Source: a virus. Taken from it: 45,513 bases of DNA. The notes beneath the pieces were generated by a model. It did no database searches, was not told the origin of the DNA, and worked only from the letters and a program-made list of their open reading frames with translations. Position numbers and translations under genes: made by a program. Shown here in pieces: positions 7,303 through 45,513 of the stretch; the first letter of the stretch is position 1, and each line of letters opens with the position of its first letter. The DNA is taken from the IMG/VR virus record IMGVR_UViG_3300026519_000004, positions 1 through 45,513 of that record; one strand, 5' to 3'.

Positions 7303-7418
7303 AACAACTGCCCGAGCACCAACTCCGCGACGCACTCGTGATATGGCGGGTCTTCGCACTCGTGGGGTGGGTGTTGTTTATTGTGGCGGTGGTGATTGAT
7401 GTGCGAAGGGCAATGTAA
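7299..7418 (+). CDS. 39-aa single-pass membrane micro-protein candidate (below the ORF-track size cut-off)
   Basis: GTG 7299 overlaps the upstream stop (GTGA). Its TAA overlaps the next ATG (TAATG). Hand translation gives MKQLPEHQLRDALVIWRVFALVGWVLFIVAVVIDVRRAM, which has one clear hydrophobic helix. Confidence 0.4.
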   Translation: MKQLPEHQLRDALVIWRVFALVGWVLFIVAVVIDVRRAM

Positions 7419-23023: not shown

Positions 23024-26000
23024 TATCCCGTTCCCATTCAAGGGCCTTGCCGAGACCTTCGCACTGGACAGGCAGGTTCCCAACACGAGCATGGCGCTGC
23101 GCAATGTCCGTGGCCGCGATCCCAAGACGACACGCATCCGGGGTGCTCAGCGATCTGGTATCACCCAGTATGTCAACGAGCAGGTGTTCCCGGACTTTGC
23201 TCAGGAACTTGTACAGGTCACGATCGACACAAACCTCACGACCTATACAGTCCGTGATACATCCTCTGGTCCATCGGTCGAATGGAAGAAAACAGTCAAT
23301 GGCAAGGACGCGGTCGCCGATATTGCTGTGACGCGCGGCGGGGATGTCTTCGCCGCGACGCCGCCGGACAAGTTGAGTAAATACACCTCGGAGGGATCAT
23401 GGCTGTTCACAGAGCAAGTGCCGACATCGAGCGAGGACGAATATATCAGTGCGGTTGTTGTGGATACACTGGACAATGTGTTTGTGGCCGTAAGGACCGG
23501 GGGGGCGACCCGGTACGGCGGGCGCGTGATTCGATACGAACAATCGGACGATGGTTTGGTCGAGACATGGAACCTCGACATGAACGATGCTCAGCCAGTG
23601 GACCTTGCATTGCAGGGAGACAGGCTTGTGGTCCTGACTCGAAAGTCAGGTGGCGGGGAGATCGTCGTCTACAACTCGCTGGGCGCATCGTCGCCCAATG
23701 TCTTGTGGGACCGGTCAGTCCCTTCCAAGGGCGTTGGGGTCGATCTGAATGACGACGGCGATGTCTTTGCAGTCTTCGACTCGGATGACACACGGGACGA
23801 TGTCACGCCCGGCGACTGCAACAACCCGTCTATCGCGTGGAACCCGAACGACCTGCCGACGAGCACGCTCTGGTCGTGGTATGACGCCCAGCAGATGACC
23901 GGAATAACCGACCGAGAAATCCTCGATGTCATACCGGATTGGTCTGGGAATCAAAGAGACTTGTACGCCGCACCAGCAGGGTACGCGCCTGTCATTGAGT
24001 TCCCGGGGTCATGGGGCGTGCGATTCGCCAAGAACTCATTTTGTATCTACGACGGGTTCCGATTTGAGGCCGAGCGCCGCGACGGCAAGGTAAGTGGCGT
24101 GGCCTCTGGCTTCGGCACGAACAGCGCGTTCCCGATCCATACGAATGAGCCGTTTGCGGTCGTCATGCTCATCAAGAGTCCGGGGTCTGGTGAGGGCGAG
24201 GCCAAGTTCTTTGAGACCGGTGGTAAGCCGTATACAACCATGTGGCAGTCGCAGAACGGACGCGGCTTGTCGCTCGGGTTCTCTGACCCAGGACCATCCG
24301 ACACCGACAGCACCGACCCGAATCAGACGCGGCAGGGCAATATCCTCAACGCCGGCAACGGGCGGCTTCGCGCCCCAGATGTCTGTGTTGTCTCGTTCGG
24401 ATACTCCCCAACCTCACATGATGATGGTGTCGCTGGTTACTCGTTTTTGCGTGTCAACGGCGAGACCATCGACGCCTTTACCGTTGATGATGTCCGTGTT
24501 GATACCGGTGTTCAGTTTGGTTATTCGGTGTACGCCGGGGAGGCGACAAACTGGGGGCACTTTAAGGGCGACCTGATCGAGATGGTGGTCATTAGTGGTG
24601 CGTATGACCTGCCGACGCTCGCCTCACCGTTCGGGGCTGCCGGGCCGGACGCCGAGCCCTCGCCGATCACGCCGCCAAGGTATATCTGGCCTGCAAATGG
24701 GGCGAGTCCGAACGGGAACCCTGCCGAGTACACGGATGGCACAGAATACATCACCAAGTTGGAGGGTTATCTCGCGCATCGGTATGGACAACAGGACAAA
24801 CTGGCGACCGGGCACGCATACCGGGCGGCCCCCCCGGGGCATGGGGCGAGTGGCGCGAGCCCGAACTCGACCGATGACACCTCTGAGGCCCGAAAACTCG
24901 ACTCGACCAGTGAGATTCTTGCCAAGTTCGGGTCCGGCTCTGGCTCCCTCCGTTGGGCGCGGGTTGGGAACGGCTATGGCTATGGCGTGCGCGTCCGAGA
25001 CGAGTGGGTGTACACGATTGGTCGAGGGTTCTTGGTGGCCAGCCCCGACAACTCGATCACGCTGCGCCGAATCAAAGACGAGGGGTTCACCGCCGACGAC
25101 TCTGGTGCTGGAACCTATGAACTCGCCGAGCAGCAGCCCAAGTTGTCAAACGACTCGAAGGATGACATCCTGCCAATCCGGCTCGATGTAGATTCTGACC
25201 ACAACCTGTATGTGCCCGTCAAGTCCGGGGCTCCGGGCGGAGACGACTTCTCGATCAGAAAGATCACCAGTGCGGGGACGACCGAGTGGGAGTTCAAGTG
25301 CCCGATCACAGGCGCGTCTCCCAATGTCTCATATATGTGGGGGCGTGTGTGTTCGCTCGACACGATCAGCGACATCCCTGAGCGCGAATCCATTGGAGAG
25401 CCCGAGTTTGTATACCTCGGTATCGACCATGACACCCCGGGCAACGAAGAGCCAACACTGTTCAAGTTGCGGCTCGTCGATGCGAGTGTCCGCCTTGGGG
25501 CACCAAGAGAGAAGCGGATCATTGGTCTTGGGGGGGGAGTGTTCAAGAAGATTGTTCGCGGAGCCGCAACCGAGGTAACGGCGATCACAAACAATGGCGC
25601 TACGCCGAGTGCTATTGCCCGGGTTGCCCGTGGTGCGGTGCTCAACGAAAATGCGTTCTTTGTCGATGGGCGCGATCAGTGGTACTACGACCCGGACACT
25701 GACACGATGGAGGCGTGGTCGGCAACGAGTGGTGGAACGCTTCCGAAGCGACCAAGACTTATAGAGGCGTGGCGTGGCCGGCTCGTGCTTGCAAGAACCG
25801 AGGGCAAGGGCGGCAATATCTATATGAGCAAGGTCGGAGACCCGTTCGATTGGGACTTATATCCGCCGGTCATCAGTGCCGTGCAAGCCGTGAGTCTCGA
25901 AGTGGCCTCTGCCGGTCAGGTACCCGACATCGTCAACGGCCTCATCCCGTACAACGACGACCTGCTCATCATCCTGTGTGACCACTCGATCTATCGCCTG

Positions 26001-26975
26001 ACCGGTGACCCGATGGCGAACGGAAAACTCGACTCGATCACGAACTCGATCGGCGGCGCGTTCGGGCGTGCGTGGTGCATGGACGACATTGGGATCATCT
26101 ACTTCTTTGGTTCGCGCGGCGGCCTGTACCGCATGGTGCCCGGGCGGTGGATGCCGGAACTCGTGAGCGACAACCGGTTGGATCGTCGTCTCGACTCGAT
26201 CGACCTCGACTTTTATACCGTCCGCATGGCGTGGAATGACAAGGACAAAACAGTCCACATGTTTGTCGTTCCGATCGACACAGTTGGGGCCTCGCCGTCC
26301 GGGCCGACAGCCTCTCCCCCGGCATCGCCCGGAGCGAGCCCCACTGCGTCACCTGTGGCCAGCCCGACGCCGGCTAGCCCATCTGGAGGGCCGGTGAATC
26401 CCGGTGGCGACTTTGGGGGCGCGTTCGATCCAGACCTCCATATCGCAGCAAGCACGACCGCTGCCGACCCATTGACTCACTGGGTGTGGGAAAGGCCGAC
26501 GGACGGGCTCTTTGAGGACAAGTTTGCACTCTCCTCGCTCGACCCGACGGCGATCCTCGTGGTCGATGGCGACGAGCCGGACGACCGGGTGCTGTTGATG
26601 GGTTGTGGCGATGGATACCTCCGGGCATGGGACCGGGACGCCACGAGCGACGATGGGAGCGCGATCGACGCATTTGTCGTCATCGGACCGCTGCAACCAC
26701 AGGAGGCGCACGCCCGGGTCCGGTGGAATGACTGGGAGATCACTCTTAGCCCCGGCCAGAACGGGGCCACGGTCGAACTGTTTGCTTCTGAAAACGCCGA
26801 GAATGAGGGCCCGGTCTTCAAGACCTTCACGGTTGCCGCCGGGCGGAACTCGGGGCTCAAGCATAGAGTAAAGGCCTCATATGTGTGGCTCAAGATCGGG
26901 AACAGCACTGTGAACGAGCGGTTTGCGATCGAGGAGATTGCGGCTCAGTGGCAGTTGGCCGGGAGGGCAAGATGA
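23004..26975 (+). CDS. Large virion structural protein, tail tubular B/nozzle-like, with repeat (propeller-like) and lectin-like regions and a PAST-rich linker
   Basis: 1323 aa from ATG 23004, with GGAAGGGGG upstream. The N-terminus 'FKGLAETFALDRQVPNTSMALRNVRG' resembles the starts of podovirus nozzle proteins. Recurrent '...DVFA...' blade-like segments. The track ORF starting at 22776 would overlap the previous gene by 248 nt. Confidence 0.45.
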   Translation: MLPKPVDIPFPFKGLAETFALDRQVPNTSMALRNVRGRDPKTTRIRGAQRSGITQYVNEQVFPDFAQELVQVTIDTNLTTYTVRDTSSGPSVEWKKTVNGKDAVADIAVTRGGDVFAATPPDKLSKYTSEGSWLFTEQVPTSSEDEYISAVVVDTLDNVFVAVRTGGATRYGGRVIRYEQSDDGLVETWNLDMNDAQPVDLALQGDRLVVLTRKSGGGEIVVYNSLGASSPNVLWDRSVPSKGVGVDLNDDGDVFAVFDSDDTRDDVTPGDCNNPSIAWNPNDLPTSTLWSWYDAQQMTGITDREILDVIPDWSGNQRDLYAAPAGYAPVIEFPGSWGVRFAKNSFCIYDGFRFEAERRDGKVSGVASGFGTNSAFPIHTNEPFAVVMLIKSPGSGEGEAKFFETGGKPYTTMWQSQNGRGLSLGFSDPGPSDTDSTDPNQTRQGNILNAGNGRLRAPDVCVVSFGYSPTSHDDGVAGYSFLRVNGETIDAFTVDDVRVDTGVQFGYSVYAGEATNWGHFKGDLIEMVVISGAYDLPTLASPFGAAGPDAEPSPITPPRYIWPANGASPNGNPAEYTDGTEYITKLEGYLAHRYGQQDKLATGHAYRAAPPGHGASGASPNSTDDTSEARKLDSTSEILAKFGSGSGSLRWARVGNGYGYGVRVRDEWVYTIGRGFLVASPDNSITLRRIKDEGFTADDSGAGTYELAEQQPKLSNDSKDDILPIRLDVDSDHNLYVPVKSGAPGGDDFSIRKITSAGTTEWEFKCPITGASPNVSYMWGRVCSLDTISDIPERESIGEPEFVYLGIDHDTPGNEEPTLFKLRLVDASVRLGAPREKRIIGLGGGVFKKIVRGAATEVTAITNNGATPSAIARVARGAVLNENAFFVDGRDQWYYDPDTDTMEAWSATSGGTLPKRPRLIEAWRGRLVLARTEGKGGNIYMSKVGDPFDWDLYPPVISAVQAVSLEVASAGQVPDIVNGLIPYNDDLLIILCDHSIYRLTGDPMANGKLDSITNSIGGAFGRAWCMDDIGIIYFFGSRGGLYRMVPGRWMPELVSDNRLDRRLDSIDLDFYTVRMAWNDKDKTVHMFVVPIDTVGASPSGPTASPPASPGASPTASPVASPTPASPSGGPVNPGGDFGGAFDPDLHIAASTTAADPLTHWVWERPTDGLFEDKFALSSLDPTAILVVDGDEPDDRVLLMGCGDGYLRAWDRDATSDDGSAIDAFVVIGPLQPQEAHARVRWNDWEITLSPGQNGATVELFASENAENEGPVFKTFTVAAGRNSGLKHRVKASYVWLKIGNSTVNERFAIEEIAAQWQLAGRAR

Positions 26976-27219: not shown

Positions 27220-27972
27220 ATGGCGGCTTTTCCTTGGGGTGCAGCACTTATGGCCGGTGGCAATATCCTCGGCGGCCTGCTCGGGGATGACGGCCAAGAC
27301 GCCGCGAACCGCGCTAACCAACTCCGGCTCCAACAGGCTATGGGGTTTCTCCGGTCGGCCTCGATGCGGCAACGCATCTTGTTCAGCCGGTCTGAGGATA
27401 TTCTCAAGGCCCGGTCCCGCCTTGTGTTGAGCGACATTGATCGTGCTGAGAACGAGGCTCGGACTGGAACAAAATACGCCGAGCAGGCGGTCCAAGATCA
27501 GGCGACCGCCGCTGAGGGTTCTATTGTTCAAGGCGCTGTCGGAAGGGGACTTGGGTCGTCGTCGGTGACCAGCAACCTCCAACGGGCCCTTGCCTCGGAC
27601 ACAGGCCGCGCGATCGGAGCGATACGCGAACAACAGGGCGCACGGCTCACGGCTCTTGCTCTCCAGCGGGCACAAGTCCGTGGCGGCCTCATGGGGGATC
27701 AGGCGTCGCTCCAAGAGCGCCGTGCTGGTGCCGAAGTGGATATGAACCAGCGGTTTGTCGATCTGCTTTCGAGCGTCCAAGATATTTACACGCCAAATAA
27801 CATGGCTGGGAATTTTGGGATGCTCGGTGGGCTGCTTGGCAACTCGATCGAGGGTGCGGGTGGGCTTGGTGGGTTTTTAGGCGGAATCTTTGGGGGTGGG
27901 AGGGGTGGGGGAGGCGGCTTTGGCCTTGGAGATTATGTAGCACCATTTACAGGCGGTAGCGTATTCGCATAG
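27220..27972 (+). CDS. Internal virion/ejection protein candidate with Gly-rich termini
   Basis: 250 aa with an AGGAG RBS. The N-terminus is hydrophobic and Gly-rich. The C-terminus is 'GGLGGFLGGIFGGGRGGGGGFGLG'. The centre is helical. Confidence 0.35.
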   Translation: MAAFPWGAALMAGGNILGGLLGDDGQDAANRANQLRLQQAMGFLRSASMRQRILFSRSEDILKARSRLVLSDIDRAENEARTGTKYAEQAVQDQATAAEGSIVQGAVGRGLGSSSVTSNLQRALASDTGRAIGAIREQQGARLTALALQRAQVRGGLMGDQASLQERRAGAEVDMNQRFVDLLSSVQDIYTPNNMAGNFGMLGGLLGNSIEGAGGLGGFLGGIFGGGRGGGGGFGLGDYVAPFTGGSVFA

Positions 27973-27981
27973 GAGTAGACC

Positions 27982-29109
27982 ATGGCCTTCGTAATTGATC
28001 GTACCGACAGGGGTGGAGTACTTGGCCGCGCCGCCGAGGGCGCTGCGCAGTCGATGGGTCCGACCTTGGCGATCGGCCAACAGATGAGAGAGGATCGCCG
28101 GCAGCGCGGTGCGAACTCCGCGCTCGTCGGTCTCGGCAAGCAGTTGTTTGGAGATCAGTTCAGCGGTGCGCTCGATCAGTTTGACGCAGCCCAAAGCCCG
28201 GACATGACGCTCCAAGCGTTGCAGATGATGGAGGGCGAGTTCGAGACTCAAAAGAGAATCGCATCTGTTGAGTCGCTTATTCAACTCTCAATACAAGAGG
28301 GGATCATCGACGAGGCGGACTCCGAGCCGCTTCTTGCCATGACCAAGTGGATGCCGGATGATGTCCACAAGTCCCTCATGTCACTGTGGGTTCAGTCGAA
28401 CTCTATCGCACTTGAGGCTCAGCGATACAGAAAACAAGCCGCTCGTCTGCGAGAGTTGTATGTGACTGAGGATGGAGACCCAGAGTTGGCGGCGTATGCC
28501 CACACACTCGCGGCCTCGGTTGAGTCTGGATACAAGGACATTGGGTGGGCGCGAGACAGAATCTCCCGGCTGGAAGCGATTTTGAGTACCGAGGAAGGTA
28601 GAAGGCTTTGGGCGGGCATAAGAGACCTTGATGATGTTGAGCGGGCGCTGACAACATTGGCCACCAAAAACATTGGTCTTGGGTCCGACCCATTCGGGAG
28701 GGTATCTGGCACAACCACAGGTCCACAGGTGAACGCCCAGACACCAAGCAAGTATCTCGGCGGCGGCATGACCATGCCCGGCGGAATCGAGATCAAGTAT
28801 GTAACTGAACTTGGCGCGCAGGCCGCAGAGGCTTCGAGGGTTGGCGTCGAGCAGGCGTTCGGCACGATGGGCCAGTTCAATCAGGGTGATGTCACGAAGT
28901 GGTGGAAGCAACTCGACTCAACTGTTCGGGGGTCGAAGGGGGATTTAGCCCTCATATACAAGCGGATTGAGAACCAAGTTGCCTCGCTCCCGGTGATGTC
29001 ACAACTTGCAAGCATGAACAAGGGCCGCGCGGACAAGGAAATCCGGGCGCTGAGCCAGAACATTATGAAGATGTATGCGGAGCATATTCGTGCCACAGCC
29101 GGCAAGTGA
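27982..29109 (+). CDS. Internal virion protein candidate (375 aa, helical)
   Basis: AGGAG RBS. Sits between the Gly-rich protein and the giant protein. No family recognised. Confidence 0.35.
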   Translation: MAFVIDRTDRGGVLGRAAEGAAQSMGPTLAIGQQMREDRRQRGANSALVGLGKQLFGDQFSGALDQFDAAQSPDMTLQALQMMEGEFETQKRIASVESLIQLSIQEGIIDEADSEPLLAMTKWMPDDVHKSLMSLWVQSNSIALEAQRYRKQAARLRELYVTEDGDPELAAYAHTLAASVESGYKDIGWARDRISRLEAILSTEEGRRLWAGIRDLDDVERALTTLATKNIGLGSDPFGRVSGTTTGPQVNAQTPSKYLGGGMTMPGGIEIKYVTELGAQAAEASRVGVEQAFGTMGQFNQGDVTKWWKQLDSTVRGSKGDLALIYKRIENQVASLPVMSQLASMNKGRADKEIRALSQNIMKMYAEHIRATAGK

Positions 29110-32100
29110 TATACCTGACTTCTCGTCCTTCTTGAGCCCAGAGGACTTGGCCGCCTTTGAGTCGGTGATCCCTGCCGGTGGCCAGCCTTCGCCGTTCGAT
29201 GGGGTGAGGGTTGAGCGGCACCCGGACATCGACAAGCGGGCCAAGATTACACCAAAAGGCAATGACCGGCTGAGCCGGACGCTCCGCGCCGGCCTCTTAG
29301 CCGCCAAGTTCGTGCGGGACGCGACAGAAGCAACGACCCCGGACCAGAGAGAAACCGGGCCGCTTCTTTCCGACCTCGGCAAAGCGCTCTACCGTGGATC
29401 ATCTCGTATTATGTCCAATACCACTGGTGCTGTCGCCGCCGGCGCGACACTGCTTGAGTCCGTTACTGGCGACACCGTTCTGACCGACGCGACACAGGCG
29501 TATGCGCAGATTCAGACCGACTTGTTAGAGTCTGCCATTCGGCCTAACAATGCACAAAGAACGGACGCCACGGGCATCCGTGGTATGGCTGAGGATTTCT
29601 CAGAGTCGCTCCCAAGCCTTGCTGCGCAGGTTGGTCTTGCAGCGGCTACCGGTGGCGCATCAGTCGGCCTGTCGGTTGGTGCTCGTGGAGCAACCGCACT
29701 CGGTGTGTTCGCCGGAACCGCCGCCGCCCCGAAGGTTGGGCAGGTATATCAGGATGCACTCGAAGAACATGGGCAACCAGACATGGCAGCGGTTGAGGGC
29801 CTTGAGAGTGGCCTGTGGACCTTTGCATCTGAGTACCTGCTTGGGGGGCTGATCCGGATACCCGGAGTCCGCCAGACGCTCGGTGAGTCCATCGAGGTTG
29901 TATCCAATAACTTTGTTGGCAAGGTTGCAAAAGGTGCGGTCGGCGAGGGCTTGCAGGAGGGCATCGAAACCATCGGCGACGAGGTGATTGCCGAGTTCAA
30001 CCGAAGGGGGGGAGGCGATCTCTTGCAGGATGCCGAGCAGGCGATGTCCCGGGCTACCGATAAGGACACGCTTGTTGCCGCCGCGTACGGCGCTGCGATC
30101 GGAATGGCTGGCGGCGGCCTGGTCAGTGGCGTCGGGGCCTCGATAGACCTGCGCATCCAAAGCCGCGTCCGCCGCATGGCCCGGGACGCCCGAGATAATG
30201 CAGACGGATTGCTGGAGTTGTACAAAAAAGAGACGGGGCAAGAGTACCCGAGGGCCGACGAGTACCGAGAGGTCACAAAGGCGTGGGCCAATGACCCGCT
30301 CGACCAGCGGTACACGGCGGCAGCCGACAAACTCTATGGCGACATGCTCAAGCGTGTTCGGGCGGCCCGGGACGGCACTGCCGAAGATAGTGCCGAGCCG
30401 AAGCCTGCGCGGCCTGATGCCAAAGATACTCGGACCGATGAGCAGAAGTACGGTCCTAATGCGGTGAGCGCTGAGGAGGCTGCGCAGGAGGCTGTTGAAC
30501 CCAAGCGCAAGCCGGTCATCAAATCGGTCTCCAAGACGCGGGGTAAAGAGATGTCCCGCGAGGAAGATGCGATCGTCGCCTCTCTCGGTCGGCCAGACAG
30601 CGAGTTTGAGACAGCACGGGTCCACTTCCCGGCCGTCGATGAACTTCGTCCGGACCAGCAGGAGATCGTTAAGGATGCCCGCAGTCGTGGAACGAACATC
30701 GTGTTCGGCGTCCCGATCGGGGTCGATGGAAAGAATAATGAAATCCCGGGCCTGTTGTCGCGTGTGCCCGGGCAGTATGACCCGGTCATCTTCCTCAACG
30801 CTGAACTCGATCCGGGCAAGACGACCCAGTCGTACCAGTTTCACGAGGAACTCCATGACCTTGACGAGCGGTTCAGAACCGAGGCCGACAAGAACTCAAA
30901 AGAGTGGAACTCGCTCGTGGAGGCGCTTGAAGACTTCGCGCCGGCTGTCATGGAGACCGCCCGGACTGAGGCCCGAGAACGGTATGAGGGGTTCAGTAAC
31001 CAACAGATCAGGGCCGAGGTGCCATCCGTCGCCGCCGAGATCGTCATCAGCGCGATGGGGCCACTGGATGTCAAAGTGCTTCACCAGGCACTCGCGGACC
31101 ACAATAACCGTGGTCTCGGTACGCGGCTCGTCGAGGCGATCAAAAGGCTGGCCAAAAAACTTGGGATCAAGGTCAGACTGCCTGACCGGTACGCCGGAAC
31201 CTTCGAGCACTCGAAGCAGATCGTCGAGGCGGCTAACCTCATTTATACCGCGATCCACGGCAAGAGGCCGACCGCGAGACAGGCGGCCCAAAAGGCCGCA
31301 AGGTCGGACTCGAACCCGACCGAACAGCCGGCCAAGTCCGCGAGAAGCATCTCACCAGAGAGCCCGGGGCCGGACGATGTTAAGTTCGCACGGCGCGGCG
31401 ACCGGCCTGTTGACGGGACAGGGAAAAAGACACTGACTGCTAATGCAACCCCGAAAAACAAACCTGCCTCCCGGGAGCGGCAGATCATCAACAACGCGGC
31501 GCTCGTAGCCGGCGTCCCGGAAAGGGCGATCAAACTCGCCGAGAGCCTTGATCGGCGTACCACATCAACGACGGTCTATCCAACATTTACTCCGATTGGT
31601 GCATCAAGCCCGCTGTTGCGGCCAGGCCACGGAGCGGTGTTTATACCGACTGATAGTGATGTCAAATGGGCAAGGCTTCCGACGCTGTATTCCAAAGCCC
31701 ACCGCACGATCCTCGACTCAAACATGAAAAAGGCCCCGGGGTCGCAGTGGAAGGCATGGCTGCGCAAACAGCCGGGCATCAAGTCCGTGGAACTTGAGTG
31801 GCTCAATATCGACTCGAAGACCGCGTACAACCGAGTGGATGACAAACAGGTATATACGCGCGAGGAGATGCTTGAGATCATCGAGAGTTCAATCCCCTCG
31901 GTCTATGTTATTATTCAGGCAGACAAGCCGCCGCCGTCCGTGAAGTACCAAGCAAGTTATGACGAAATCAAGTACGACCCGGACAAAGACTATAACCAAG
32001 ACCCAGATGACGAGTTGTCCATGGACGAGAGCGATTACACGCTCCATGATATTGATGACTCGATGGTCTACGACAACGCCCGTGACGACATACAGCATGG

Positions 32101-35100
32101 TGGCGATGTTATTGATCGTGTTGACTACCTCTCCGAATATGATGAACTTGTTGAAGAAAAGACCCAAGAGTTGTTCGACAGGTTCATGGAGACCTATGAC
32201 GGCCCGCCGACCTTGTTTGATCCCAACGCAACTGAGATCACGGTAGAGGATTGGGCCGATAAAAACGATAGTGAGATCGAGGACGCTGTCCGCGCGGAGA
32301 TCGAGAGTCAACTTCAGGACGAGACCGGGCCGTTTTGGGATTTTTTCTACGAATCTGCGTTAGAGTCGGCAGAGGAGTATCGCGGGAAGACATGGGAATC
32401 TCCGCATTACAACGCCCGGATCGAGATACCGTACGGCGAGGACTTTGGGCCGGATTACGACGCTTATTATGATGGCCGGCACCTAGGACAATACGGCGAC
32501 TGGTATGATGCTTATGTCGCGGTCCGGGAAGAGTTTGTAAACGAAGAAAATATCGTCCTTGGCGAAGACCCACAAAATGTCCACGATTTTTGGGAGCCTG
32601 AGAAGTACGCCGAAAATATTTTAATTGGTGGACGAAAGGCATTGAAGTGGGAGTCTAATGATGATGAAGATATTTATATCTATCATATCATCGACGACCC
32701 GGACGACCCTCTTGATGTCACTGAGCCTCACCAGTATATTGCCTTCTATAAGGGGTACTCACTGGACAATGGTAACTCGTTTGACACATGGGAGGAGGCA
32801 AGAAACGAGATTTATACCACTTGGCTTCGTGAGAGGGCTGGGAAAGTCTATGGCACCGAAACAGATATAGCGCTTCCTGCTTCGGATGATGGCGAGACAA
32901 AAGAACTTGCTAAAGAGAGGATAAAGCCCGGGCTGTTCTATGATATTGCGGAGAAAGGTACAAGTTTCGGCTCAGTGTCCTACCGGCTTGCCGGCACACA
33001 ACACTCGTACACAGAACACCTCCTCAAACTCGTACCGCCCGGTGGCGAAGTCTTATACACCAAAGGCCATTGGTCTGGGAACAACATCTTTGCGCATGTT
33101 CGCACGACGGTCAGGCCTATCGGTGGTGTCCAAACGCTCCATGGTGATGAGTTCCAAAGTGATTGGTTTGTGGATGGTCGCAGGCTTGGTGTTGTCCCGA
33201 GGGGGTTGACAGAGTCAGACATACGGGACATGGTGGTTTCTGCAAACAAGAAGAACGATGAAATGAAAGATGCTCTCACTGATGTTCGCAAAGAGATATC
33301 TTCATCTATTCGATTATTGTTGAAAAGGATTTCAGGTGGCGGCCTTTCCGAGAAGATAAAGCGTGCGGTTGAAAGCGACTTTACTGCCGATAACGGATTT
33401 TATTCAGTAAATCCATATCAAGATATAACCGAACTTGCAGACCTTGTTTACAACCACGCCGACGAAACCTTTGCCGACAAGATAATCAACTTTGCTGTCA
33501 ATAGTATGGCATCCTCTGTAAAAGGTTTGCTCGGAATCGAAGATATGTTACGGATTCCCATGCAGTCCCCTGTCGAACTTGGTAGTGTAGATTCAAGTAT
33601 TTTGCCAACAAACCCTGATGTTATATCAAAGCACATATCATCTAGAAAAGAAGGTCCGTTCGACATCTACGGGGCTCACCACAGAGAGATGGATGGTCAA
33701 CACGGAGACACTATAACCAATGATATACTTCGCGCTGTTCCACTTGGACACAAACGAGAGTTCAGGCTTGGCAAGTCGAGCGCTACGATACTCGCAAACT
33801 ATGTTGTGAATACTGTTTACAATGAGTTTGTGAGTAACCCTGAAAATGTGGCGAGACATGTCGCTCGCGCTAACGAACTTCGCATAGAGAGTGATAGAAT
33901 CCGTAACAATGCCCAGCGAAACTCCATAAAAGATTTCCCGTTCAATGATTATGATTCGTGGGTTCCGATTGCACTCAAGTATCTGCTTGAGCGTGCGGCG
34001 TATACGGGCGCTGATTGGGTCACATGGAACACCGGTGCAACCCAGCGAGAGATCAATGATCGGGCCCTTGAGACCCATATGAAACAGGCCGTGTTCAAGC
34101 AAAAAGACCACCCCTATGCCAAGTTTGCGATTGAGGGTGATGTTGTTCTTGTCAACCTTGATGGTGCCAGCACCGTTGAAAAGAATGTTGTTATTTACGA
34201 CGAGGAGACTTTCAAGCGGGCTTTCCCGGACAAGAAAGCGCTCGATCTGGTTCGCAGGCTCAAGCCCGGCGAGACTGCAACATATGTTCCAGACAACCCA
34301 ATCCCGTTCTCGGCAAACTCGATGTATGAGACGGTGTACGACCGCGTGGCTGTCAAGGCGGCCAACAAGATGCTCAAGCCGGTCAAGGTGAAGGTTGAGA
34401 AGGTTGTGCTTGACAGTGCAATCGGGAAGCCAGAAGTATGGGGCATACGGCTGAATGATGATGTTCGAGAACTCCTCCAAGCCCCGAAGACCATGTGGGC
34501 GCGCAGGTCCGGTCCTAGGGACGGTGTTGTAGAGTTGTCAAGCAGCAAACTTGGTATCAACGCCCCACGAGTCTTGAAAAAGGTGGCAAAGTCGCTGGCG
34601 ACGGTCAATGGCCTGCCGATCCCGCTCTATCAGGGCGGCCCACACTCGTCATCCATGAACGGGAACATCATTATCACGGGCAACCGTATGATGCAAAATG
34701 GTGCTGGAATCTATCTTGCCGATGACCGCCGTGTAGCCCTTGCGTTCGCCGAGCAGAAACTCGGCGTCGTCCGCACATTCGCGCTCGATATCCGAAGGCC
34801 GCTTGACCTCCGAAACATGGACCCGGCGATAGAGCAACGAACACTCAACATCCTCCGTCTTGTCAATGACGACCTCATCACACGGGTCAGCCGGATGCTC
34901 AAGGCTCGTGGCCGTGTGTATGGCTCGCCAGTCACCAAAAACCTTCTTGACTCAACGCTCCGGTCTCTGCGAAGCATCCGGCTGTCATATGGCGAGCCGA
35001 TCAAGGGTGTGCCGGCGAGGGAACTCATTTCGTCGGAGTACGAGCGCAAAATCAGACTTGTCATGGAGGAACTTGAGGATTTTGATATCACGCTCCGCTA

Positions 35101-37999
35101 CCCGAGCAAGGTTAGCCCAGGTGAAATATACAACACTGTCTATCGTGCTCGCTCTGGCATGTTTGATGTCAATAATGTGCTCGCCCAGCACGGTATTGAC
35201 GGTATTATCCATGCTAACTCAGACATATGGGGGAGCCGATACTCCGATTCGCTTGGTCGGAGGCCGGTAAACGACTATGGCGACAGTTATATCGCGTTCC
35301 ACCCTGAGCAGATCATCCAGATCGGCGACCAGATTGATGTCAAGAATAGTGTCCGGTTCGCCCGGACATCCAAGAAAACTCGCGGGCGTCCCGACTTAGC
35401 CAATCCCGGGCGCACGGACGCTGCCCGGGCATTGGTCGATGATGTTGACGAGGCCAGAAACCGGTCTGGCCGGCCACCTGTTGTACCGGACACTGTGTTC
35501 CGCAGTGAGGCCAGACGGCGAATCGAAGCCGACCGTGATAAAGAGCAACGGCTTCTGCTCCAGATGGCGCGACAGGGCGTGCCGTTCGGGCCGACCGAAA
35601 CTTATATGGCTAAGGAAATCACGAACCAACTGGCCGTCGAATCACTCGCCTCGGGCGATGTTGACCAGATGGAGCAGGCCATGCAGTTCGCGGATGCCTA
35701 CCGGGAATCTGGCACCGTCCAAGCACGGGCGTTCCGCCAGCGCCGCGACGAGGTGATGACGCCACAGGAGCGGATGCAGAACGCGCTCACAAACATGTTG
35801 ACGCTCCCGGGCAAGGATGCGAGGGAACGACTGCTCAAACTGAATGATAAACTGCGCAACACCCATGACGAGCACGACGCCCGGGTGCTCGAAAAGCGCC
35901 GCAGCCGAATCATCCGCGAGCAGGCTGAACAACTCGATGAGATTCGCACCCGGCTGTCCAAGATGGGGCTCGATCCCCGGACGCTCACGCCGATCAAGGC
36001 GTCCGACCCGGTCGTCGCCTCGAAGGTTGCGCGGACCGTCTCGTCTGTCCGGGCGTCCACTAGCGACAAGGTCTTTGAGTTCTTCCTTTCGATGATCCTC
36101 AGTGGTCCACAGACCCATATGGCCAACACGCTGGGCAATACCGTCAACTCGGCGATTCGCTTCGGGCTCGTCCGACCAACTGAGGTGCTCATCAACACGA
36201 TCGTACGCGACCCCAAAGGCGCACAGGTGGGGGAACTCCCACATATGTACGGCTCGATGTTCGGCGGGATTGTCCGGGGAACCACTGCGCTGTTGCGGGC
36301 CTACCGCACGGAAGCCCCGACCTTCATGGAGGACTTCCTCGACGATACACAGCGAACCTCGAAACTGGAACTCCATGAGTCGCGGGCGGCGATCAAGGGA
36401 ACCAAGGGTCGGATCATCCGCCTGCCCAGCCTGACCACCTTGTTGGCGTTCGATGAGTTCTTCAAGGCAATGGGCGGCAATATGGAGAGTCACGCCATGG
36501 CCTACCGGGTTGGCCGGGCCATGGGGCTGTCTGGCCGTGACCTTGGTCGGTTCATCGAAATCGCCGTGACCAGCGAGAATGACATTACAGAACTGGACAT
36601 GGACAAGTTCGCCAGCCTTTTTGGCTACCCGCTCGATCAGGCGATCGAGGTCTACGCGGATGTCCGCGACCAGATCAGGGATTATGCCATGCGGTCGGCC
36701 AAGGAAATCACCTTCCAAGATACGCCGAGCGTCATCGGTCAGGCGATGCTCAAGGCGCGTGAGGTCGTGCCGGGGCTCCGGTATCTCGTGCCGTTCGTGT
36801 CGGTCCCAGACCGAATCTTCGCACTTGGCCTCAAGATGACCCCGCTCGGCACACTTCCATTGGCGTTGCGGTCGCTCAGCACTGGCATGATCTCGCTCGG
36901 CTTCAAGGCCGATGGCGTGGACTACCGGGTCGAGAAAGACCGAATGGTCAACGACGCGGCGTTCGCAGTCCTCGGCTGGGGTGTGTTCGGGCTGCTCTGG
37001 GCGCTGACTGGCGGCGGTGGCAGTGACGACGACGATGACCTGCCGATCATCACCGGTTCATCCTCGCCTGATTATGGCAAGCGTGGTGCCCAGTACCGCA
37101 CGGCACCGCCGATGAGCGTCCGCATCGACGACAAGTATTACTCATATCGCCGTCTGGAGCCAGCGGCCGTGACATTGGCCACAACGGTTGACCTTATCAA
37201 CGAGGCCCGGCGGGTCATCGAAACCGACGGGTCGCACTCGGACGCCGCGATCGAGGCCATGTCTCGTGCCGGGTCTTCGGTTCTCGACCAGATGAAGGAC
37301 AAGACTTTCCTCCAGACGCTCGGCGACCTGACGACGATCCTGACCGACGACAACCGGCGGGAGAGCACGGTCGCCCGGGTCGGCATGAACTTCGTGACCG
37401 CATGGGTGCCGAACCTTATTAAGCAACCGCTCCGCAATCTGGAGCCCGGGCTCCGTGATACGACGATCCGGCGACAAGACGATGGGTGGTGGGGTGGCTT
37501 CCGCTCGAACCTTGCGTATTCGGCCCTTCCTCTGCCCCAGTGGGCTCCGCCGCCTCGCGTGGACATCTGGGGCCGCGAGATACGCAGGGGCAGCCCGTGG
37601 GGCTCCTCTGGTGCTCTGGCGGTTGCGTGGCGGCTCGGTATGCCGATCAAAGTGAGCGAGGTCGGGGATGTCCACCCGCTTGACCTGATGATTGCCAACT
37701 ACAACCGCGCGGCAGAGAACGGTGAACTTGGCATGGACGCCGAGCCGTTGTACCCCAGACCACCGACTGCCTCGGTCAATCGCAAGGCAATCTCGTTCAG
37801 AATGACCGATGAGGAGTACCACCGCCTGACCCGGGATGGTGGACAGCGAGCGGCTAGCCGACTCATGGCCATGGGGTTAGACTTCGATCACCCGGGCAAG
37901 CGTGAGTATGATGCGGTGCGAAAGGCGTTCCGTGATAGTTATGGCGAGGTTCGTGATGAGATTGTGAACGAGCGACTGAGGCAGGAGGCCGGCAGATGA
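29075..37999 (+). CDS. Giant (2974-aa) polyvalent-type virion/ejection protein
   Basis: Uninterrupted 8.9-kb ORF with these modules:
- HExxH 'HEELH' at 30842..30856.
- Central 'HW...N...H.R...LHGDEFQSDW' module (around 33070..33175).
- ART-PolyVal-like module (about 34600..35330: 'GIYLADDRRVALAFAE', 'GIDGIIH', 'YIAFHPEQIIQIG').
- C-terminal region 'ILSGPQTHMANTLGN ... PGLRYLVPFVSVP' with a TM segment and a poly-D run.
The start is ATG 29075 or GTG 29090; both overlap the upstream gene. Confidence 0.7.
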   Translation: MRSIFVPQPASDIPDFSSFLSPEDLAAFESVIPAGGQPSPFDGVRVERHPDIDKRAKITPKGNDRLSRTLRAGLLAAKFVRDATEATTPDQRETGPLLSDLGKALYRGSSRIMSNTTGAVAAGATLLESVTGDTVLTDATQAYAQIQTDLLESAIRPNNAQRTDATGIRGMAEDFSESLPSLAAQVGLAAATGGASVGLSVGARGATALGVFAGTAAAPKVGQVYQDALEEHGQPDMAAVEGLESGLWTFASEYLLGGLIRIPGVRQTLGESIEVVSNNFVGKVAKGAVGEGLQEGIETIGDEVIAEFNRRGGGDLLQDAEQAMSRATDKDTLVAAAYGAAIGMAGGGLVSGVGASIDLRIQSRVRRMARDARDNADGLLELYKKETGQEYPRADEYREVTKAWANDPLDQRYTAAADKLYGDMLKRVRAARDGTAEDSAEPKPARPDAKDTRTDEQKYGPNAVSAEEAAQEAVEPKRKPVIKSVSKTRGKEMSREEDAIVASLGRPDSEFETARVHFPAVDELRPDQQEIVKDARSRGTNIVFGVPIGVDGKNNEIPGLLSRVPGQYDPVIFLNAELDPGKTTQSYQFHEELHDLDERFRTEADKNSKEWNSLVEALEDFAPAVMETARTEARERYEGFSNQQIRAEVPSVAAEIVISAMGPLDVKVLHQALADHNNRGLGTRLVEAIKRLAKKLGIKVRLPDRYAGTFEHSKQIVEAANLIYTAIHGKRPTARQAAQKAARSDSNPTEQPAKSARSISPESPGPDDVKFARRGDRPVDGTGKKTLTANATPKNKPASRERQIINNAALVAGVPERAIKLAESLDRRTTSTTVYPTFTPIGASSPLLRPGHGAVFIPTDSDVKWARLPTLYSKAHRTILDSNMKKAPGSQWKAWLRKQPGIKSVELEWLNIDSKTAYNRVDDKQVYTREEMLEIIESSIPSVYVIIQADKPPPSVKYQASYDEIKYDPDKDYNQDPDDELSMDESDYTLHDIDDSMVYDNARDDIQHGGDVIDRVDYLSEYDELVEEKTQELFDRFMETYDGPPTLFDPNATEITVEDWADKNDSEIEDAVRAEIESQLQDETGPFWDFFYESALESAEEYRGKTWESPHYNARIEIPYGEDFGPDYDAYYDGRHLGQYGDWYDAYVAVREEFVNEENIVLGEDPQNVHDFWEPEKYAENILIGGRKALKWESNDDEDIYIYHIIDDPDDPLDVTEPHQYIAFYKGYSLDNGNSFDTWEEARNEIYTTWLRERAGKVYGTETDIALPASDDGETKELAKERIKPGLFYDIAEKGTSFGSVSYRLAGTQHSYTEHLLKLVPPGGEVLYTKGHWSGNNIFAHVRTTVRPIGGVQTLHGDEFQSDWFVDGRRLGVVPRGLTESDIRDMVVSANKKNDEMKDALTDVRKEISSSIRLLLKRISGGGLSEKIKRAVESDFTADNGFYSVNPYQDITELADLVYNHADETFADKIINFAVNSMASSVKGLLGIEDMLRIPMQSPVELGSVDSSILPTNPDVISKHISSRKEGPFDIYGAHHREMDGQHGDTITNDILRAVPLGHKREFRLGKSSATILANYVVNTVYNEFVSNPENVARHVARANELRIESDRIRNNAQRNSIKDFPFNDYDSWVPIALKYLLERAAYTGADWVTWNTGATQREINDRALETHMKQAVFKQKDHPYAKFAIEGDVVLVNLDGASTVEKNVVIYDEETFKRAFPDKKALDLVRRLKPGETATYVPDNPIPFSANSMYETVYDRVAVKAANKMLKPVKVKVEKVVLDSAIGKPEVWGIRLNDDVRELLQAPKTMWARRSGPRDGVVELSSSKLGINAPRVLKKVAKSLATVNGLPIPLYQGGPHSSSMNGNIIITGNRMMQNGAGIYLADDRRVALAFAEQKLGVVRTFALDIRRPLDLRNMDPAIEQRTLNILRLVNDDLITRVSRMLKARGRVYGSPVTKNLLDSTLRSLRSIRLSYGEPIKGVPARELISSEYERKIRLVMEELEDFDITLRYPSKVSPGEIYNTVYRARSGMFDVNNVLAQHGIDGIIHANSDIWGSRYSDSLGRRPVNDYGDSYIAFHPEQIIQIGDQIDVKNSVRFARTSKKTRGRPDLANPGRTDAARALVDDVDEARNRSGRPPVVPDTVFRSEARRRIEADRDKEQRLLLQMARQGVPFGPTETYMAKEITNQLAVESLASGDVDQMEQAMQFADAYRESGTVQARAFRQRRDEVMTPQERMQNALTNMLTLPGKDARERLLKLNDKLRNTHDEHDARVLEKRRSRIIREQAEQLDEIRTRLSKMGLDPRTLTPIKASDPVVASKVARTVSSVRASTSDKVFEFFLSMILSGPQTHMANTLGNTVNSAIRFGLVRPTEVLINTIVRDPKGAQVGELPHMYGSMFGGIVRGTTALLRAYRTEAPTFMEDFLDDTQRTSKLELHESRAAIKGTKGRIIRLPSLTTLLAFDEFFKAMGGNMESHAMAYRVGRAMGLSGRDLGRFIEIAVTSENDITELDMDKFASLFGYPLDQAIEVYADVRDQIRDYAMRSAKEITFQDTPSVIGQAMLKAREVVPGLRYLVPFVSVPDRIFALGLKMTPLGTLPLALRSLSTGMISLGFKADGVDYRVEKDRMVNDAAFAVLGWGVFGLLWALTGGGGSDDDDDLPIITGSSSPDYGKRGAQYRTAPPMSVRIDDKYYSYRRLEPAAVTLATTVDLINEARRVIETDGSHSDAAIEAMSRAGSSVLDQMKDKTFLQTLGDLTTILTDDNRRESTVARVGMNFVTAWVPNLIKQPLRNLEPGLRDTTIRRQDDGWWGGFRSNLAYSALPLPQWAPPPRVDIWGREIRRGSPWGSSGALAVAWRLGMPIKVSEVGDVHPLDLMIANYNRAAENGELGMDAEPLYPRPPTASVNRKAISFRMTDEEYHRLTRDGGQRAASRLMAMGLDFDHPGKREYDAVRKAFRDSYGEVRDEIVNERLRQEAGR

Positions 38000-38011
38000 G
38001 TTGGAGGTTTC

Positions 38012-38392
38012 GTGACAAGCCCCTTTATGCACTCCGTTCTCATTGTTGGTTCGCTGTGGACGCCGCTAAACACCTTGGGCGTTGTGACCGGCGGTTTGGG
38101 CATGGCCGATCTGATTGCACAGGCTCCTGTGCTCGGGCTGCTCGTAGTCGTCGTCTACCTGTTCCTGCGCCACATGCGAGAGTCCGACGAGCGACGGCTC
38201 AAGACCGAGTCCGAGGCCGAGGCTGTGAGGCTCAAGACGCTATCCAAGATTGGCGAGGATTTTCACCTGATCCAAAAAGAGGGGCACGAGGTCATGCGGG
38301 AGATGCGGTCTCACATGGCAATAGACCACGAACTGCATGGAAGACTGGTCAATATCATCGAGACAATGGAAACAAGGCTGGAACAAAAATAA
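38012..38392 (+). CDS. Holin-like membrane protein (two TM segments plus a charged coiled-coil tail)
   Basis: GTG 38012 lies 4 nt after GGAGG. TM candidates are 'SVLIVGSLWTPLNTLGVVTGGL' and 'APVLGLLVVVVYLFL'. It is the last gene of the long operon, immediately before a strong hairpin. Confidence 0.4.
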   Translation: MTSPFMHSVLIVGSLWTPLNTLGVVTGGLGMADLIAQAPVLGLLVVVVYLFLRHMRESDERRLKTESEAEAVRLKTLSKIGEDFHLIQKEGHEVMREMRSHMAIDHELHGRLVNIIETMETRLEQK

Positions 38393-38417
38393 CAAGGGCC
38401 TCGTGAGCACATAAAAA

Positions 38418-39218: not shown

Positions 39219-39258
39219 TATCACCAACAGGCAACCAGAAGCCATGGTCCAATGTTTG

Positions 39259-39286
39259 TTGACGGGTGTAGCCATAGGTGTATAGT
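39259..39286 (+). promoter_or_regulatory. Near-consensus sigma70-type promoter candidate
   Basis: TTGACG (39259..39264), a 16-nt spacer, then TATAGT (39281..39286). Followed by AAGGAG and ATG 39309. Confidence 0.5.
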
Positions 39287-39308
39287 TGAGCAACAAAAAG
39301 GAGACATT

Positions 39309-40559
39309 ATGCAGATCATCAGACTTGAAGCAGAGAACATTAAGCGGCTCAAGGCCGTGTCGATCACTCCCGAGGGCTCGATCGTCGAGATCACGGGCCG
39401 CAACGCACAAGGCAAGTCGAGCGTGCTTGACTCCATTGCATATCTGCTTGGCGGCGAGCGGCTGGTGCCCAGTAAGCCGATCAGGGATGGCCAAGAGACG
39501 GCGTTCGTACGCGGGTATCTCGGCGACACCGAAGTCGAGTTGGAGGTCGAGCGCCGGTGGCGGAACGGTCGCAGCACCTTGACGGTTAAGACGCCAGATG
39601 GATTGTCAATCGGAAAAGCGCAGGCGGCGCTCAACGACATCATCGGGCTTCTTTCCTTTGACCCGCTGGCGTTCACTCGGATGCCGCCAAAGCAACAGGC
39701 CCAGACGCTCAGAGAACTGGCGGGCATCGACACGACCGAGTTGGATGCCGAGCGGGCACGCCTGTTCGAGGAACGAACGATCGTCAGACGCCGGGTCAAG
39801 GAACTTGAGGCACAGGCGTCCGCGATCGCCGTCCCGGATGGCGGGTTCCCGGACGGAGGCCCGGTAAACATTCAAGACCTGATCGTCACCGCCGGCTCGA
39901 TCCGGGAAAGCAACCGAAAACTCGACCTGATCGGTGCGAAGATACAGGAATCAATGAACATCGTTTCCAGTGCGGCTGAGCGCATAAAGCAACTTGAATC
40001 AGAGATCGAAGCCTGCCGGGCCGACATCGAGAATCAAAACGCGAAGATAATGGAACTGGAAAAACAACGAGAGTCCATAGGCGGCTACGCCGACATCAAG
40101 GCTGTCGAGAGTGAAATGGCAAGCGCCGAGAACATCAACGCCTCGATCCGGCTGCGAGACCAGCGTGCTGATCTGGTTGAACAGGCAGCCAAAGCACAGA
40201 AGGAATCAGACGACCGGTCGAGCCGTATCAACCAGATCGACGGGATGCGTGTCGAGATGATCGAAAACGCGAACATGCCAATCCCGGGGCTCGGGCTCGA
40301 AGATGGCGAGGTGACCTACAACGGGACACCATTCGACCAGATTTCGTCAGCGGAACAGTTGAAGGTAAGCGTGGCCATGGGGCTGGCAATGAACCCGAAA
40401 CTCAAGGTCATACTGATCCGGGACGGCTCTCTGCTCGACTCCGAGTCAATGGCGACGATTGGCAGGATGGCCGATGAATCCGGTGCCCAGATATGGATTG
40501 AAACAGTTTCAGACGGCGATGCTCGCGGGGTCGTCATCGAAGACGGCATGGTGGCGTAG
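39309..40559 (+). CDS. AAA/SMC-like (RecF/RecN/SbcC-type) ATPase
   Basis: N-terminal 'IIRLEAENIKRLKAVSI...ITGRNAQGKSSVLDSI' (Walker A), a central coiled coil, and C-terminal 'SSAEQLKVSVAMGLA...LKVILIRDGSLLD' (signature and Walker B). Confidence 0.65.
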   Translation: MQIIRLEAENIKRLKAVSITPEGSIVEITGRNAQGKSSVLDSIAYLLGGERLVPSKPIRDGQETAFVRGYLGDTEVELEVERRWRNGRSTLTVKTPDGLSIGKAQAALNDIIGLLSFDPLAFTRMPPKQQAQTLRELAGIDTTELDAERARLFEERTIVRRRVKELEAQASAIAVPDGGFPDGGPVNIQDLIVTAGSIRESNRKLDLIGAKIQESMNIVSSAAERIKQLESEIEACRADIENQNAKIMELEKQRESIGGYADIKAVESEMASAENINASIRLRDQRADLVEQAAKAQKESDDRSSRINQIDGMRVEMIENANMPIPGLGLEDGEVTYNGTPFDQISSAEQLKVSVAMGLAMNPKLKVILIRDGSLLDSESMATIGRMADESGAQIWIETVSDGDARGVVIEDGMVA

Positions 40560-45275: not shown

Positions 45276-45513
45276 GATCGGTTTCTAGTCCTTGGCTGAC
45301 AATAGGGCGCGGGGTGTCAGCGAGCAGTTCAGCGAGCGCCCTGAGGCCATTGGGGCTAATCAGCACACAGCCGCCCGTGGCCACCTCCGCCTCAATACCC
45401 CGAGGGTCAAGGGCGTCATCGACGACGCTGCACGCAAAAGCCTCGTTCCGACGACCGATGGTTCGATCAGCGATTCTCGAACACGCTGAACAGATTTTGC
45501 GATCTGTAATGGC
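45259..45513 (-). CDS. C-terminal part of the wrap-around 136-aa hypothetical gene. 45387..45513 duplicates 1..127.
   Basis: In-frame continuation ...GIEAEVATGGCVLISPNGLRALAELLADTPRPIVSQGLETDHAESA, ending at TGA 45261..45259. There is no start codon inside the window end because the ATG is at 283. Confidence 0.6.
   Translation of the reverse strand, partial: AITDRKICSACSRIADRTIGRRNEAFACSVVDDALDPRGIEAEVATGGCVLISPNGLRALAELLADTPRPIVSQGLETDHAESA
45387..45513. repeat. 127-bp exact direct repeat, copy 2 (identical to 1..127)
   Basis: See copy 1. Confidence 0.95.

Follow-up and report, generated by a model that had tools for sequence, protein, structure and literature searches.

A giant multi-module protein with an internal-virion-type C-terminus in an uncultured, highly divergent podovirus

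Genome organization and the giant gene

The viral DNA analyzed here is the IMG/VR record IMGVR_UViG_3300026519_000004, a stretch of 45,513 nucleotides (nt) referred to below as the window, and our subject is a single giant open reading frame (ORF) among its late genes that encodes a protein of 2,974 amino acids (aa). An earlier note on this DNA had reported an ORF of this length at 29075–37999 and put its share of the genome at about 20%; this was confirmed, with the gene taking up 19.7% of the closed genome. The two window ends overlap by exactly 127 nt (1–127 and 45387–45513), and the genome was therefore considered circularly closed, with a true length of approximately 45,386 bp. The late-gene product consists of at least five separable modules, any activities of which are putative.

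The ATG at 29075 overlaps the stop of the upstream ORF. An in-frame GTG at 29090, preceded by GGAG 9 nt to the 5' side, may serve as an alternative start, at a cost of only 5 aa. The orthologue of the giant protein, P0002, is encoded on a related contig, L001, and similarity to this contig continues 5' of the called start of P0002, over aa 66–112 of the query, which indicates that the N-terminus of the giant ORF is coding. Homologues show 57% identity across the final ~1,000 aa, and matches to the middle region come from 898 representative proteins (see below); the ORF is thus coding and not a chance reading frame.

Searches with the whole giant protein against Pfam and NCBIfam gave no match, and the gene had no match among GenBank phages by megablast or tblastn. 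No chain of the PDB, which includes N4 mini-vRNAP and crAss-like RNAP structures, was similar in sequence at E<=1. The absence of RNA polymerase motifs reported in the earlier note was in agreement with these results, as no such signal appeared in the Pfam or PDB sequence searches. The sole PHROGs match was to an 'internal virion protein' (PHROG 6651, aa 2456–2779, E=2e-8). Because curated libraries show almost nothing on the whole protein, module dissection relied on homologues. All of the motifs listed in the earlier note were located: Gly plus Ala make up ~30% of aa 100–350, Asp plus Glu make up 21–31% of an acidic tract at aa ~900–1250, HExxH occurs once (HEELH, aa 590), and HW and QSDW lie at aa 1332 and 1361, respectively. 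The coordinates of all features are summarized in Table 1.

The window carries genes for a large terminase, a major head protein, and a decoration protein, together with a clear SU10-type adaptor (E=2.7e-12) and a weak match to an SU10-type portal. The giant gene is the last of the structural block and directly precedes the replication genes, with an O-like replication initiator, an SbcC-like ATPase, an exonuclease, and RecT encoded downstream. The phage is a podovirus, yet its replication and transcription genes are not T7-like. Its divergence is also great: GenBank phages gave no match to the giant gene or to the neighbors upstream of it, and the only close relative is L001, a syntenic 20-kb contig binned with a Bacteroidetes metagenome-assembled genome, whose downstream genes are 47–55% identical to those of the window.

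Table 1. Coordinates of the giant gene, its modules, and related features (nt positions refer to the window unless a contig is named)
Feature	Residues (aa)	Position (nt)	Strand	Remarks
Two upstream ORFs (250 aa and 375 aa)		27220..29109	+	Candidate small internal/ejection proteins; both Cys-free
Giant ORF		29075..37999 (stop codon included)	+	Uninterrupted; 2,974 aa
Gly/Ala-rich module	98–442	29366..30400	+	41% identity to P0002 aa 1–344
HExxH module	480–752	30512..31330	+	Putative zincin-like metallopeptidase
HEELH motif	590–594	30842..30856	+	Within the HExxH module
Three-block domain, block A	865–955	31667..31939	+	Invariant S873, W892, E906
Insertion 1	956–1295	31940..32959	+	341 aa, lineage-specific; 93 D+E, 28 K+R, 48 aromatic
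Three-block domain, block B	1296–1394	32960..33256	+	Best-conserved block among 898 matches
Insertion 2	1395–1595	33257..33859	+	Lineage-specific; GC3 0.42, lowest in the gene
Three-block domain, block C	1596–1835	33860..34579	+	Invariant P1622-F1623, W1629, K1635, G1645, W1651, G1654, Q1657, Y1755
Divergent ART-PolyVal-like domain	1842–2100	34598..35374	+	Insert of ~90 aa at aa 1936–2024
C-terminal IVP-D / gp16-position module	~2105–2974	35387..37996	+	Almost wholly alpha-helical
PGLRYLVPF	2566–2574	36770..36796	+	Part of family motif PF-V-x-T-P-x-N-I
Conserved hydrophobic helix, then GGGGS-DDDDD	2627–2647 (helix); 2651–2655 (DDDDD)	36953..37039	+	Candidate membrane-inserting segment; Kyte–Doolittle (KD) value of helix 1.7
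Three-block family loci on other contigs		L004 5746–8043; L005 10001–12001; L007 6204–9068; L008 1389–13427		

The C-terminal module

The C-terminal module is the only part of the giant protein common to many proteins, being present in seven further giants of 1,650–4,670 aa and in 13 relatives of 940–1,660 aa, the latter with E-values down to 1.5e-131. The cargo carried by relatives that share this module comprises ART-PolyVal, PBECR3, PBECR5, ddrB-ParB, ParB_N, and a Sno-type helicase. At curated thresholds, ART-PolyVal was detected in P0009 (2.2e-22), PBECR3 in P0012, PBECR5 in P0005, ddrB-ParB in P0003, and AAA_34 plus Helicase_C_4 in P0004. This range of modules on a common C-terminus supports the earlier description of the gene product as a 'polyvalent', ejection-type protein of several modules.

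An AlphaFold2 (AF2) model of the C-terminal module was nearly all helix (predicted local distance difference test, pLDDT, 71.6; predicted template modeling score, pTM, 0.69). Foldseek comparison of this model with BFVD returned 46 matches at E<=1e-3, all to predicted viral structures, the best at 4e-27. These include the 'internal virion protein' of Synechococcus phages S-RIP1, S-CBP3, and S-CBP2 and of a Pelagibacter phage, as well as uncultured-phage protein fragments annotated as ART-PolyVal, MuF-C, LPD, or nuclease, with the named and fragment matches spanning E-values from 4e-27 to 1e-12. Foldseek against the PDB gave nothing significant, and a PDB profile search with the C-terminal family (profile A1) was empty. 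Profile A1, which was built with the query among its members, gave bit scores of 185.6 for Syn5 gp45, 155.8 for P-SSP7 gp16, and 167.2 for HTVC028P gp33. Of these, P-SSP7 gp16 was treated as an IVP-D homologue by Hardies et al. (PMC4819975).

The hydrophobic helix listed in Table 1 occupies one alignment position in 14 of 14 family members, and the acidic run that follows it is found in the closer relatives. The region around PGLRYLVPF had been regarded in the earlier note as 'PLxRFG-like', but no PL.RFG motif is present, and the true family motif is PF-V-x-T-P-x-N-I. An affiliation with PLxRFG proteins was also rejected by direct comparison, as gp6 of Klebsiella phage SopranoGao (PLARFGDYF, with PLARFG at aa 3686) matched neither the query nor any of the profiles A1, A2, and A5 significantly.

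The three-block domain

The conserved-looking 'HW..QSDW' module singled out in the earlier note proved to be the core of a large conserved family. An exhaustive HMMER search with the middle 1,200 aa matched 898 representative proteins, nearly all of them in three stretches (aa 866–950, 1300–1390, and 1600–1800), which we term blocks A, B, and C of a three-block, or tripartite, domain. In relatives the blocks are spaced ~100–150 aa and ~20–60 aa apart, compared with ~340 and ~200 aa in the giant protein. The difference corresponds to insertions 1 and 2, for which no homologue was found, P0002 included. The 'long acidic region' previously listed as a module in its own right is in fact the first of these lineage-specific insertions, located inside the HW..QSDW domain.

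A profile search with the tripartite family yielded over 2,085 proteins at E<=1e-10, virtually all nameless and without Pfam annotation. Across 61 aligned members, approximately 30 residues are invariant, and every one of them is present in the giant protein, including H1332, W1333, N1337, H1341, R1343, E1359, Q1361, S1362, D1363, W1364, P1622, F1623, W1629, and K1635. The alignment was made with the insertions spliced out, since MAFFT misplaced one block when they were left in. Block B follows the pattern YRLAG..Y.E..L and then H1332-W1333..N1337..H1341.R1343..R1347..H1356..E1359.Q1361-S-D-W1364, in columns that are invariant in the 61 members. Given this invariance of ~30 polar and aromatic residues, the domain is probably enzymatic.

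The AF2 model of the spliced tripartite domain (pLDDT 71.3, pTM 0.62) gave nothing significant in Foldseek against the PDB, and a PDB profile search with the tripartite family (profile A2) was likewise empty. Scattered, low-probability Foldseek matches to GNAT acetyltransferases (best E=0.1) were not interpreted, and the idea that the E-x-Q-S-D block belongs to a PD-(D/E)xK nuclease, suggested by its strand pattern, was dropped because the fold search gave no support for it.

Stand-alone members of the family (620–900 aa) occur on podophage contigs of ~50–59 kb, where they immediately follow a P22-type portal gene and precede the coat gene. This portal-adjacent location is that of MuF/gp7 proteins. 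Homology to Mu F was nonetheless not detected, with an hhalign probability of 0.1% (A5 vs Mu F) and a Phage_Mu_F Pfam match in 0 of 9 members; gene position alone is shared.

Only five cultured phages carry the tripartite domain. In Microcystis phage Mel-JY33, it lies inside a 4,012-aa giant annotated as 'lysin', which takes up 25% of the 47-kb genome. In pelagiphage HTVC028P, it forms gp34 (profile E=2e-48), encoded directly upstream of the IVP-D-like gp33 (E=1.7e-52), and this gp34–gp33 pair belongs to the internal-core cluster and has the same order as the corresponding parts of the giant ORF. The giant ORF is therefore a gene fusion, and fusion of neighboring core-cluster genes is a classic indication of functional linkage. 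Taken together, the positions of tripartite proteins after the portal gene, beside gp16-like genes, and fused to them suggest that they are delivered from the capsid.

ART-like, HExxH, and Gly/Ala-rich modules

Between the tripartite domain and the C-terminal module lies a divergent ART-PolyVal-like domain. Pfam PF18760 (gathering score, 31.2 bits) scored 22.6 bits on the intact segment and 27.5 bits (E=5.8e-6) after the insert was spliced out, and the P0002 counterpart of the domain scored 35.7 bits. The active site of ART-PolyVal domains is H-Y-D, on strands 1, 2, and 5 (PMC5512222). Alignment to a bona fide ART-PolyVal domain showed that strand 1 reads PLYQGG in both the query and P0002, with Gln (Q1852) in place of the catalytic His. 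The Tyr is retained (Y1880, in GIYLA), and the acidic residue is ambiguous (D2069), the sequence being GDSYIAFHPEQ in the query and GNSYIVFHGGQ in P0002. The ART-like module proposed earlier is thus upheld by a spliced match over profile positions 3–133 of 140, but it departs from the family at strand 1; given the Gln there, the domain may act as a binder of nicotinamide adenine dinucleotide (NAD) or of a substrate and not as an ADP-ribosyltransferase.

The HExxH module is 39% identical to its counterpart in P0002, where the motif reads HEVLH. It had no match to a Pfam MPTase or other peptidase model even at E<=10, and no further relatives of the module were found in IMG/VR and JGI metagenomes. 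The Gly/Ala-rich module, which contains a weakly hydrophobic segment at aa 332–351, had no Pfam match; related segments were found in two further giants, P0134 and P0132.

Cysteine content and GC3

The giant protein contains no Cys among its 2,974 residues, whereas approximately 35 would be expected from the mean of the other proteins of this phage (1.19%; P about 4e-16). We compared the window ORF at 29075–37999 with loci L007, L008, L009, L011, L012, L006, and L013. Cys was also nearly absent from T7 gp15/gp16, P-SSP7 gp15/gp16, Syn5 gp44/gp45, and HTVC028P gp33–36, from the Mel-JY33 and SopranoGao giants, from all relatives examined, and from stand-alone three-block proteins, and the giant H0150 of VT2-Sakai has 2 Cys in 2,806 residues. 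The replication proteins of the present phage contain 1.4–2.5% Cys. Cys avoidance spans the cargo modules as well as the C-terminal part of the giant protein, and it is consistent with transit of an unfolded chain through the tail and the oxidizing periplasm. It may represent a general, alignment-free signature of tail-ejected proteins; it distinguishes known and suspected ejection proteins from other phage proteins and would offer a cheap predictor of such proteins.

GC content at third codon positions (GC3) was 0.42–0.55 over aa ~1050–1725 (~32200–34250), compared with 0.70–0.78 across the rest of the gene and genome; within insertion 1, GC3 is low in the second half. The P0002 gene on L001 shows no such dip. 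The three-block core and its insertions therefore look like a recent import from a lower-GC phage, and this exchange of a module within one giant gene illustrates how such proteins diversify.

Proposed function and alternative explanations

The giant protein is best read, and in our view likely, as an ejection protein located inside the podovirus capsid that arose by gene fusion and combines an IVP-D-type chassis with N-terminal cargo. This would make it a polyvalent protein as defined by Iyer et al. (2017) and would also place it with the IVP-D homologues of Hardies et al. (2016) that carry domains destined for the cytoplasm. The C-terminal ~870 aa would form the chassis, built into the head core, which at infection would leave via the portal and tail and help to form a trans-envelope conduit for the DNA, with the helix at aa 2627–2647 inserting into the cytoplasmic membrane. 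As the cargo is fused to the chassis on the same polypeptide, it would enter the cell along with the DNA. Within this cargo, the HExxH module could serve in self-processing of the giant protein or in cleavage of a host target. The three-block domain would probably be an enzymatic cargo, one that in other podophages is a separate head-associated or core-cluster protein, and the ART-type domain would possibly act by binding NAD or substrate, as outlined above.

The earlier note had compared the position of the gene with that of the ejection proteins of T7-like phages. This holds insofar as the C-terminus belongs to an internal-virion family and the gene closes the structural block; it does not hold for the phage itself, which is not T7-like, nor for T7 gp16, which is not detectably related. 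The connection of IVP-D to T7 rests on a chain of comparisons between hidden Markov models by Hardies et al. (PMC4819975).

Several observations weigh against an ejected, cargo-bearing protein. Direct pairwise comparison of the query with Syn5 gp45 was weak (17 bits), and it is the family profile, along with the predicted fold, that links them. Neither gp16 nor gp15 of T7 was reached by hhalign (probability 0.09% for A1 vs gp16 and <1% for A5 vs gp15), by Foldseek against the PDB, or by the PDB profile search. With the direct signal weak and T7 gp16 not reached, the tie to T7 is one of transitivity and position. No curated Pfam or NCBIfam model, including those of the PolyVal, LPD, MPTase, and MuF families, reached its threshold on the giant protein. 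The ART segment falls below the PF18760 cut-off (27.5 vs 31.2 bits) and lacks the catalytic strand-1 His. The tripartite domain has no assignable fold, and its putative enzymatic role is argued from residue conservation, while the HExxH module is known from two sequences only. Finally, we infer packaging from homology, position, and composition, and ejection, membrane insertion, and all enzymatic activities are to be read as predictions of the same kind.

The alternative that best survives is that the protein is purely structural, acting in ejection or as a conduit, with its upstream modules serving as inert scaffold or length spacers and possibly representing degenerate remnants of effectors. 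The lost strand-1 His of the ART domain and the lack of any enzymatic Pfam domain at threshold would fit such a protein, as would the two long insertions without homologues, one of which is highly acidic, probably of low complexity. IVP-C and IVP-D proteins are, moreover, fast-diverging and conformationally plastic (PMC4819975). We nevertheless consider this explanation unlikely, in view of what is retained: approximately 30 invariant polar or aromatic residues in the tripartite domain, whose family exceeds 2,000 members; the HExxH motif, at 39% overall identity; and the Tyr and flanking strands of the ART domain, which are conserved with P0002.

Much less probable is a non-virion early or middle protein, that is, a giant factor for replication, defense evasion, or DNA metabolism made after infection. 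The genes for replication and recombination (O-like initiator, exonuclease, RecT) do begin directly after the giant gene, with no terminator or promoter clearly between them, and the Lastavirus authors guessed at a role in 'DNA metabolism' for their own giant (PMC9505181). That giant, the PLxRFG protein of SopranoGao, is unrelated to the present one, however, and DNA-metabolism domains were not detected here in Pfam or NCBIfam searches. The C-terminal module instead has its homologues among the annotated internal core proteins of Syn5, P-SSP7, and pelagiphages, and the absence of Cys is shared with known ejection proteins and not with the replication proteins of this phage.

An N4-type virion RNA polymerase (vRNAP), or another packaged polymerase, inside an IVP-D homologue is the least credible explanation: although N4 gp50 is an IVP-D homologue with a vRNAP (PMC4819975), size and position are comparable, and no phage RNA polymerase was recognized among the other ORFs scanned, the PDB and Pfam searches described above found nothing similar, and all segments are accounted for by other modules or unique insertions.

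Returning to the ejected, cargo-bearing protein, a further and more speculative extension, which we regard as doubtful, is that the three-block domain represents a new enzyme family packaged in podophage heads and delivered with the DNA, and that insertion 1, from a lower-GC donor, could be a DNA mimic, i.e., an anti-restriction decoy of the Ocr/ArdA type. If so, the insertion 1 decoy would already be in place when the genome enters the cell.

Comparison with known proteins

IVP-D homologues that host domains destined for the cytoplasm were described by Hardies et al. (2016, PMC4819975) in N4 gp50, Pseudomonas phage H66 gp60, and VT2-Sakai orf71. Like these giants, the protein described here is very large, terminates in an alpha-helical, IVP-D-type module, and is encoded where the structural block of a podovirus closes; it also carries fused extra domains that could act only inside the cell. 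Split and fused variants also occur in both cases (HTVC028P gp34 and gp33 here; F116 vs H66 in PMC4819975). It differs from them in its cargo, which consists of HExxH, tripartite, and degenerate ART modules rather than an RNA polymerase or methylase, and in the affiliation of its C-terminal module with the cyanopodovirus/pelagiphage branch (Syn5 gp45, P-SSP7 gp16). Kinship to the Stx-phage giant H0150 (VT2-Sakai) was not supported, as the family profiles do not reach it.

Syn5 gp45, P-SSP7 gp16, and HTVC028P gp33, internal core proteins in the gp16 position of marine T7-like phages, are homologous to the C-terminal module. Like it, they are all-alpha and lack Cys, and the hydrophobic helix and the region of the PF-V-x-T-P-x-N-I motif are conserved in the family. 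They are stand-alone proteins of 985–1,415 aa, whereas the query has ~2,100 aa of additional N-terminal modules.

Polyvalent proteins were defined by Iyer, Burroughs, Anand, de Souza, and Aravind in 2017 (PMC5512222), whose starting exemplars of transferred proteins were MuF, N4 vRNAP, and DarA/DarB; the terms 'internal virion' and 'ejection' are not used in that paper. As in their proteins, many unrelated modules are joined here in one phage polypeptide among late genes, an ART-PolyVal-type domain is present, and an HExxH module occupies the usual site of an MPTase domain; in relatives, the exchangeable modules include PBECR, ddrB-ParB, and Sno-helicase. Unlike their proteins, the giant protein has no PolyVal or LPD Pfam model at threshold and is anchored by an IVP-D-type core protein, and the active site of its ART domain is Q-Y-(D?) instead of H-Y-D.

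A recent parallel is phi24B gp47, a polyvalent protein of 2,811 aa. Mass spectrometry detected it in virions, and a role in ejection was proposed for it (bioRxiv 10.64898/2026.04.10.717836). This giant of the 933W family is similar to the giant protein here in length (~2,800 aa), podovirus origin, polyvalent domain content, location at the end of the structural genes, and, judging by VT2-Sakai H0150, near absence of Cys. The domains of phi24B gp47 are LPD5, LPD1, LPD38, and MuF-C, however, and it shows no detectable similarity to either family profile. It has proteomic support, whereas the giant protein here is known from its gene.

The 'PLxRFG protein' of Lastavirus, SopranoGao gp6 (4,369 aa; PMC9505181), is also encoded by a single giant, Cys-free gene that takes up ~19% of a podovirus genome and follows the tail genes, but its sequence is unrelated and its PLxRFG motif is not found in the query.

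Since proteins of this kind were described in 2016–2017 and again with phi24B gp47 (2026), the giant protein adds a member to a known class, and the finding mainly contributes a thoroughly dissected and strongly divergent case from an uncultured podovirus. The most useful leads are the uncharacterized three-block family and the cysteine signature. With more than 2,000 phage proteins and no curated model or structure, the HW..QSDW family offers a well-defined subject for structural and biochemical studies.

Neighboring ORFs

The earlier note had placed three probable internal virion proteins ahead of the giant gene; homology searches gave no support for this, and such proteins are candidates only. 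Of the two small ORFs upstream of the giant gene, neither had detectable homologues. The 250-aa protein (27220–27972) has Gly-zipper-like ends, GGNILGGLLG... and ...GGLGGFLGGIFGGGRGGGGGFG, around a helical middle; it is a plausible small pilot or ejection protein of IVP-B-like type. Further upstream, the 1,399-aa ORF at 22776–26975 had no Pfam or PHROG match, and its similarity to a 742-aa protein of locus L002 is confined to the last ~440 aa; its product is presumably a tail, nozzle, or fiber protein. Neither this ORF nor the 375-aa ORF had a match among GenBank phages.

An Arg-rich ORF of 136 aa (37996–38406) overlaps the stop codon of the giant gene and, given the absence of homologues and its odd composition, is probably not a real gene. 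Two other proteins matched PHROGs of unknown function: that encoded at 39252–40559, with an SbcC-like ATPase N-terminus, matched phrog_1499 (6e-93), and the 358-aa protein encoded at 7418–8494, which is unusually rich in Cys (4.75%), matched phrog_2045 (4e-93). A 352-aa ORF on the minus strand (391–1449) equals the DUF932 (PF06067) gene of the syntenic contig L001 in length and orientation, the two features by which they were compared, and sits in a short block transcribed leftward.

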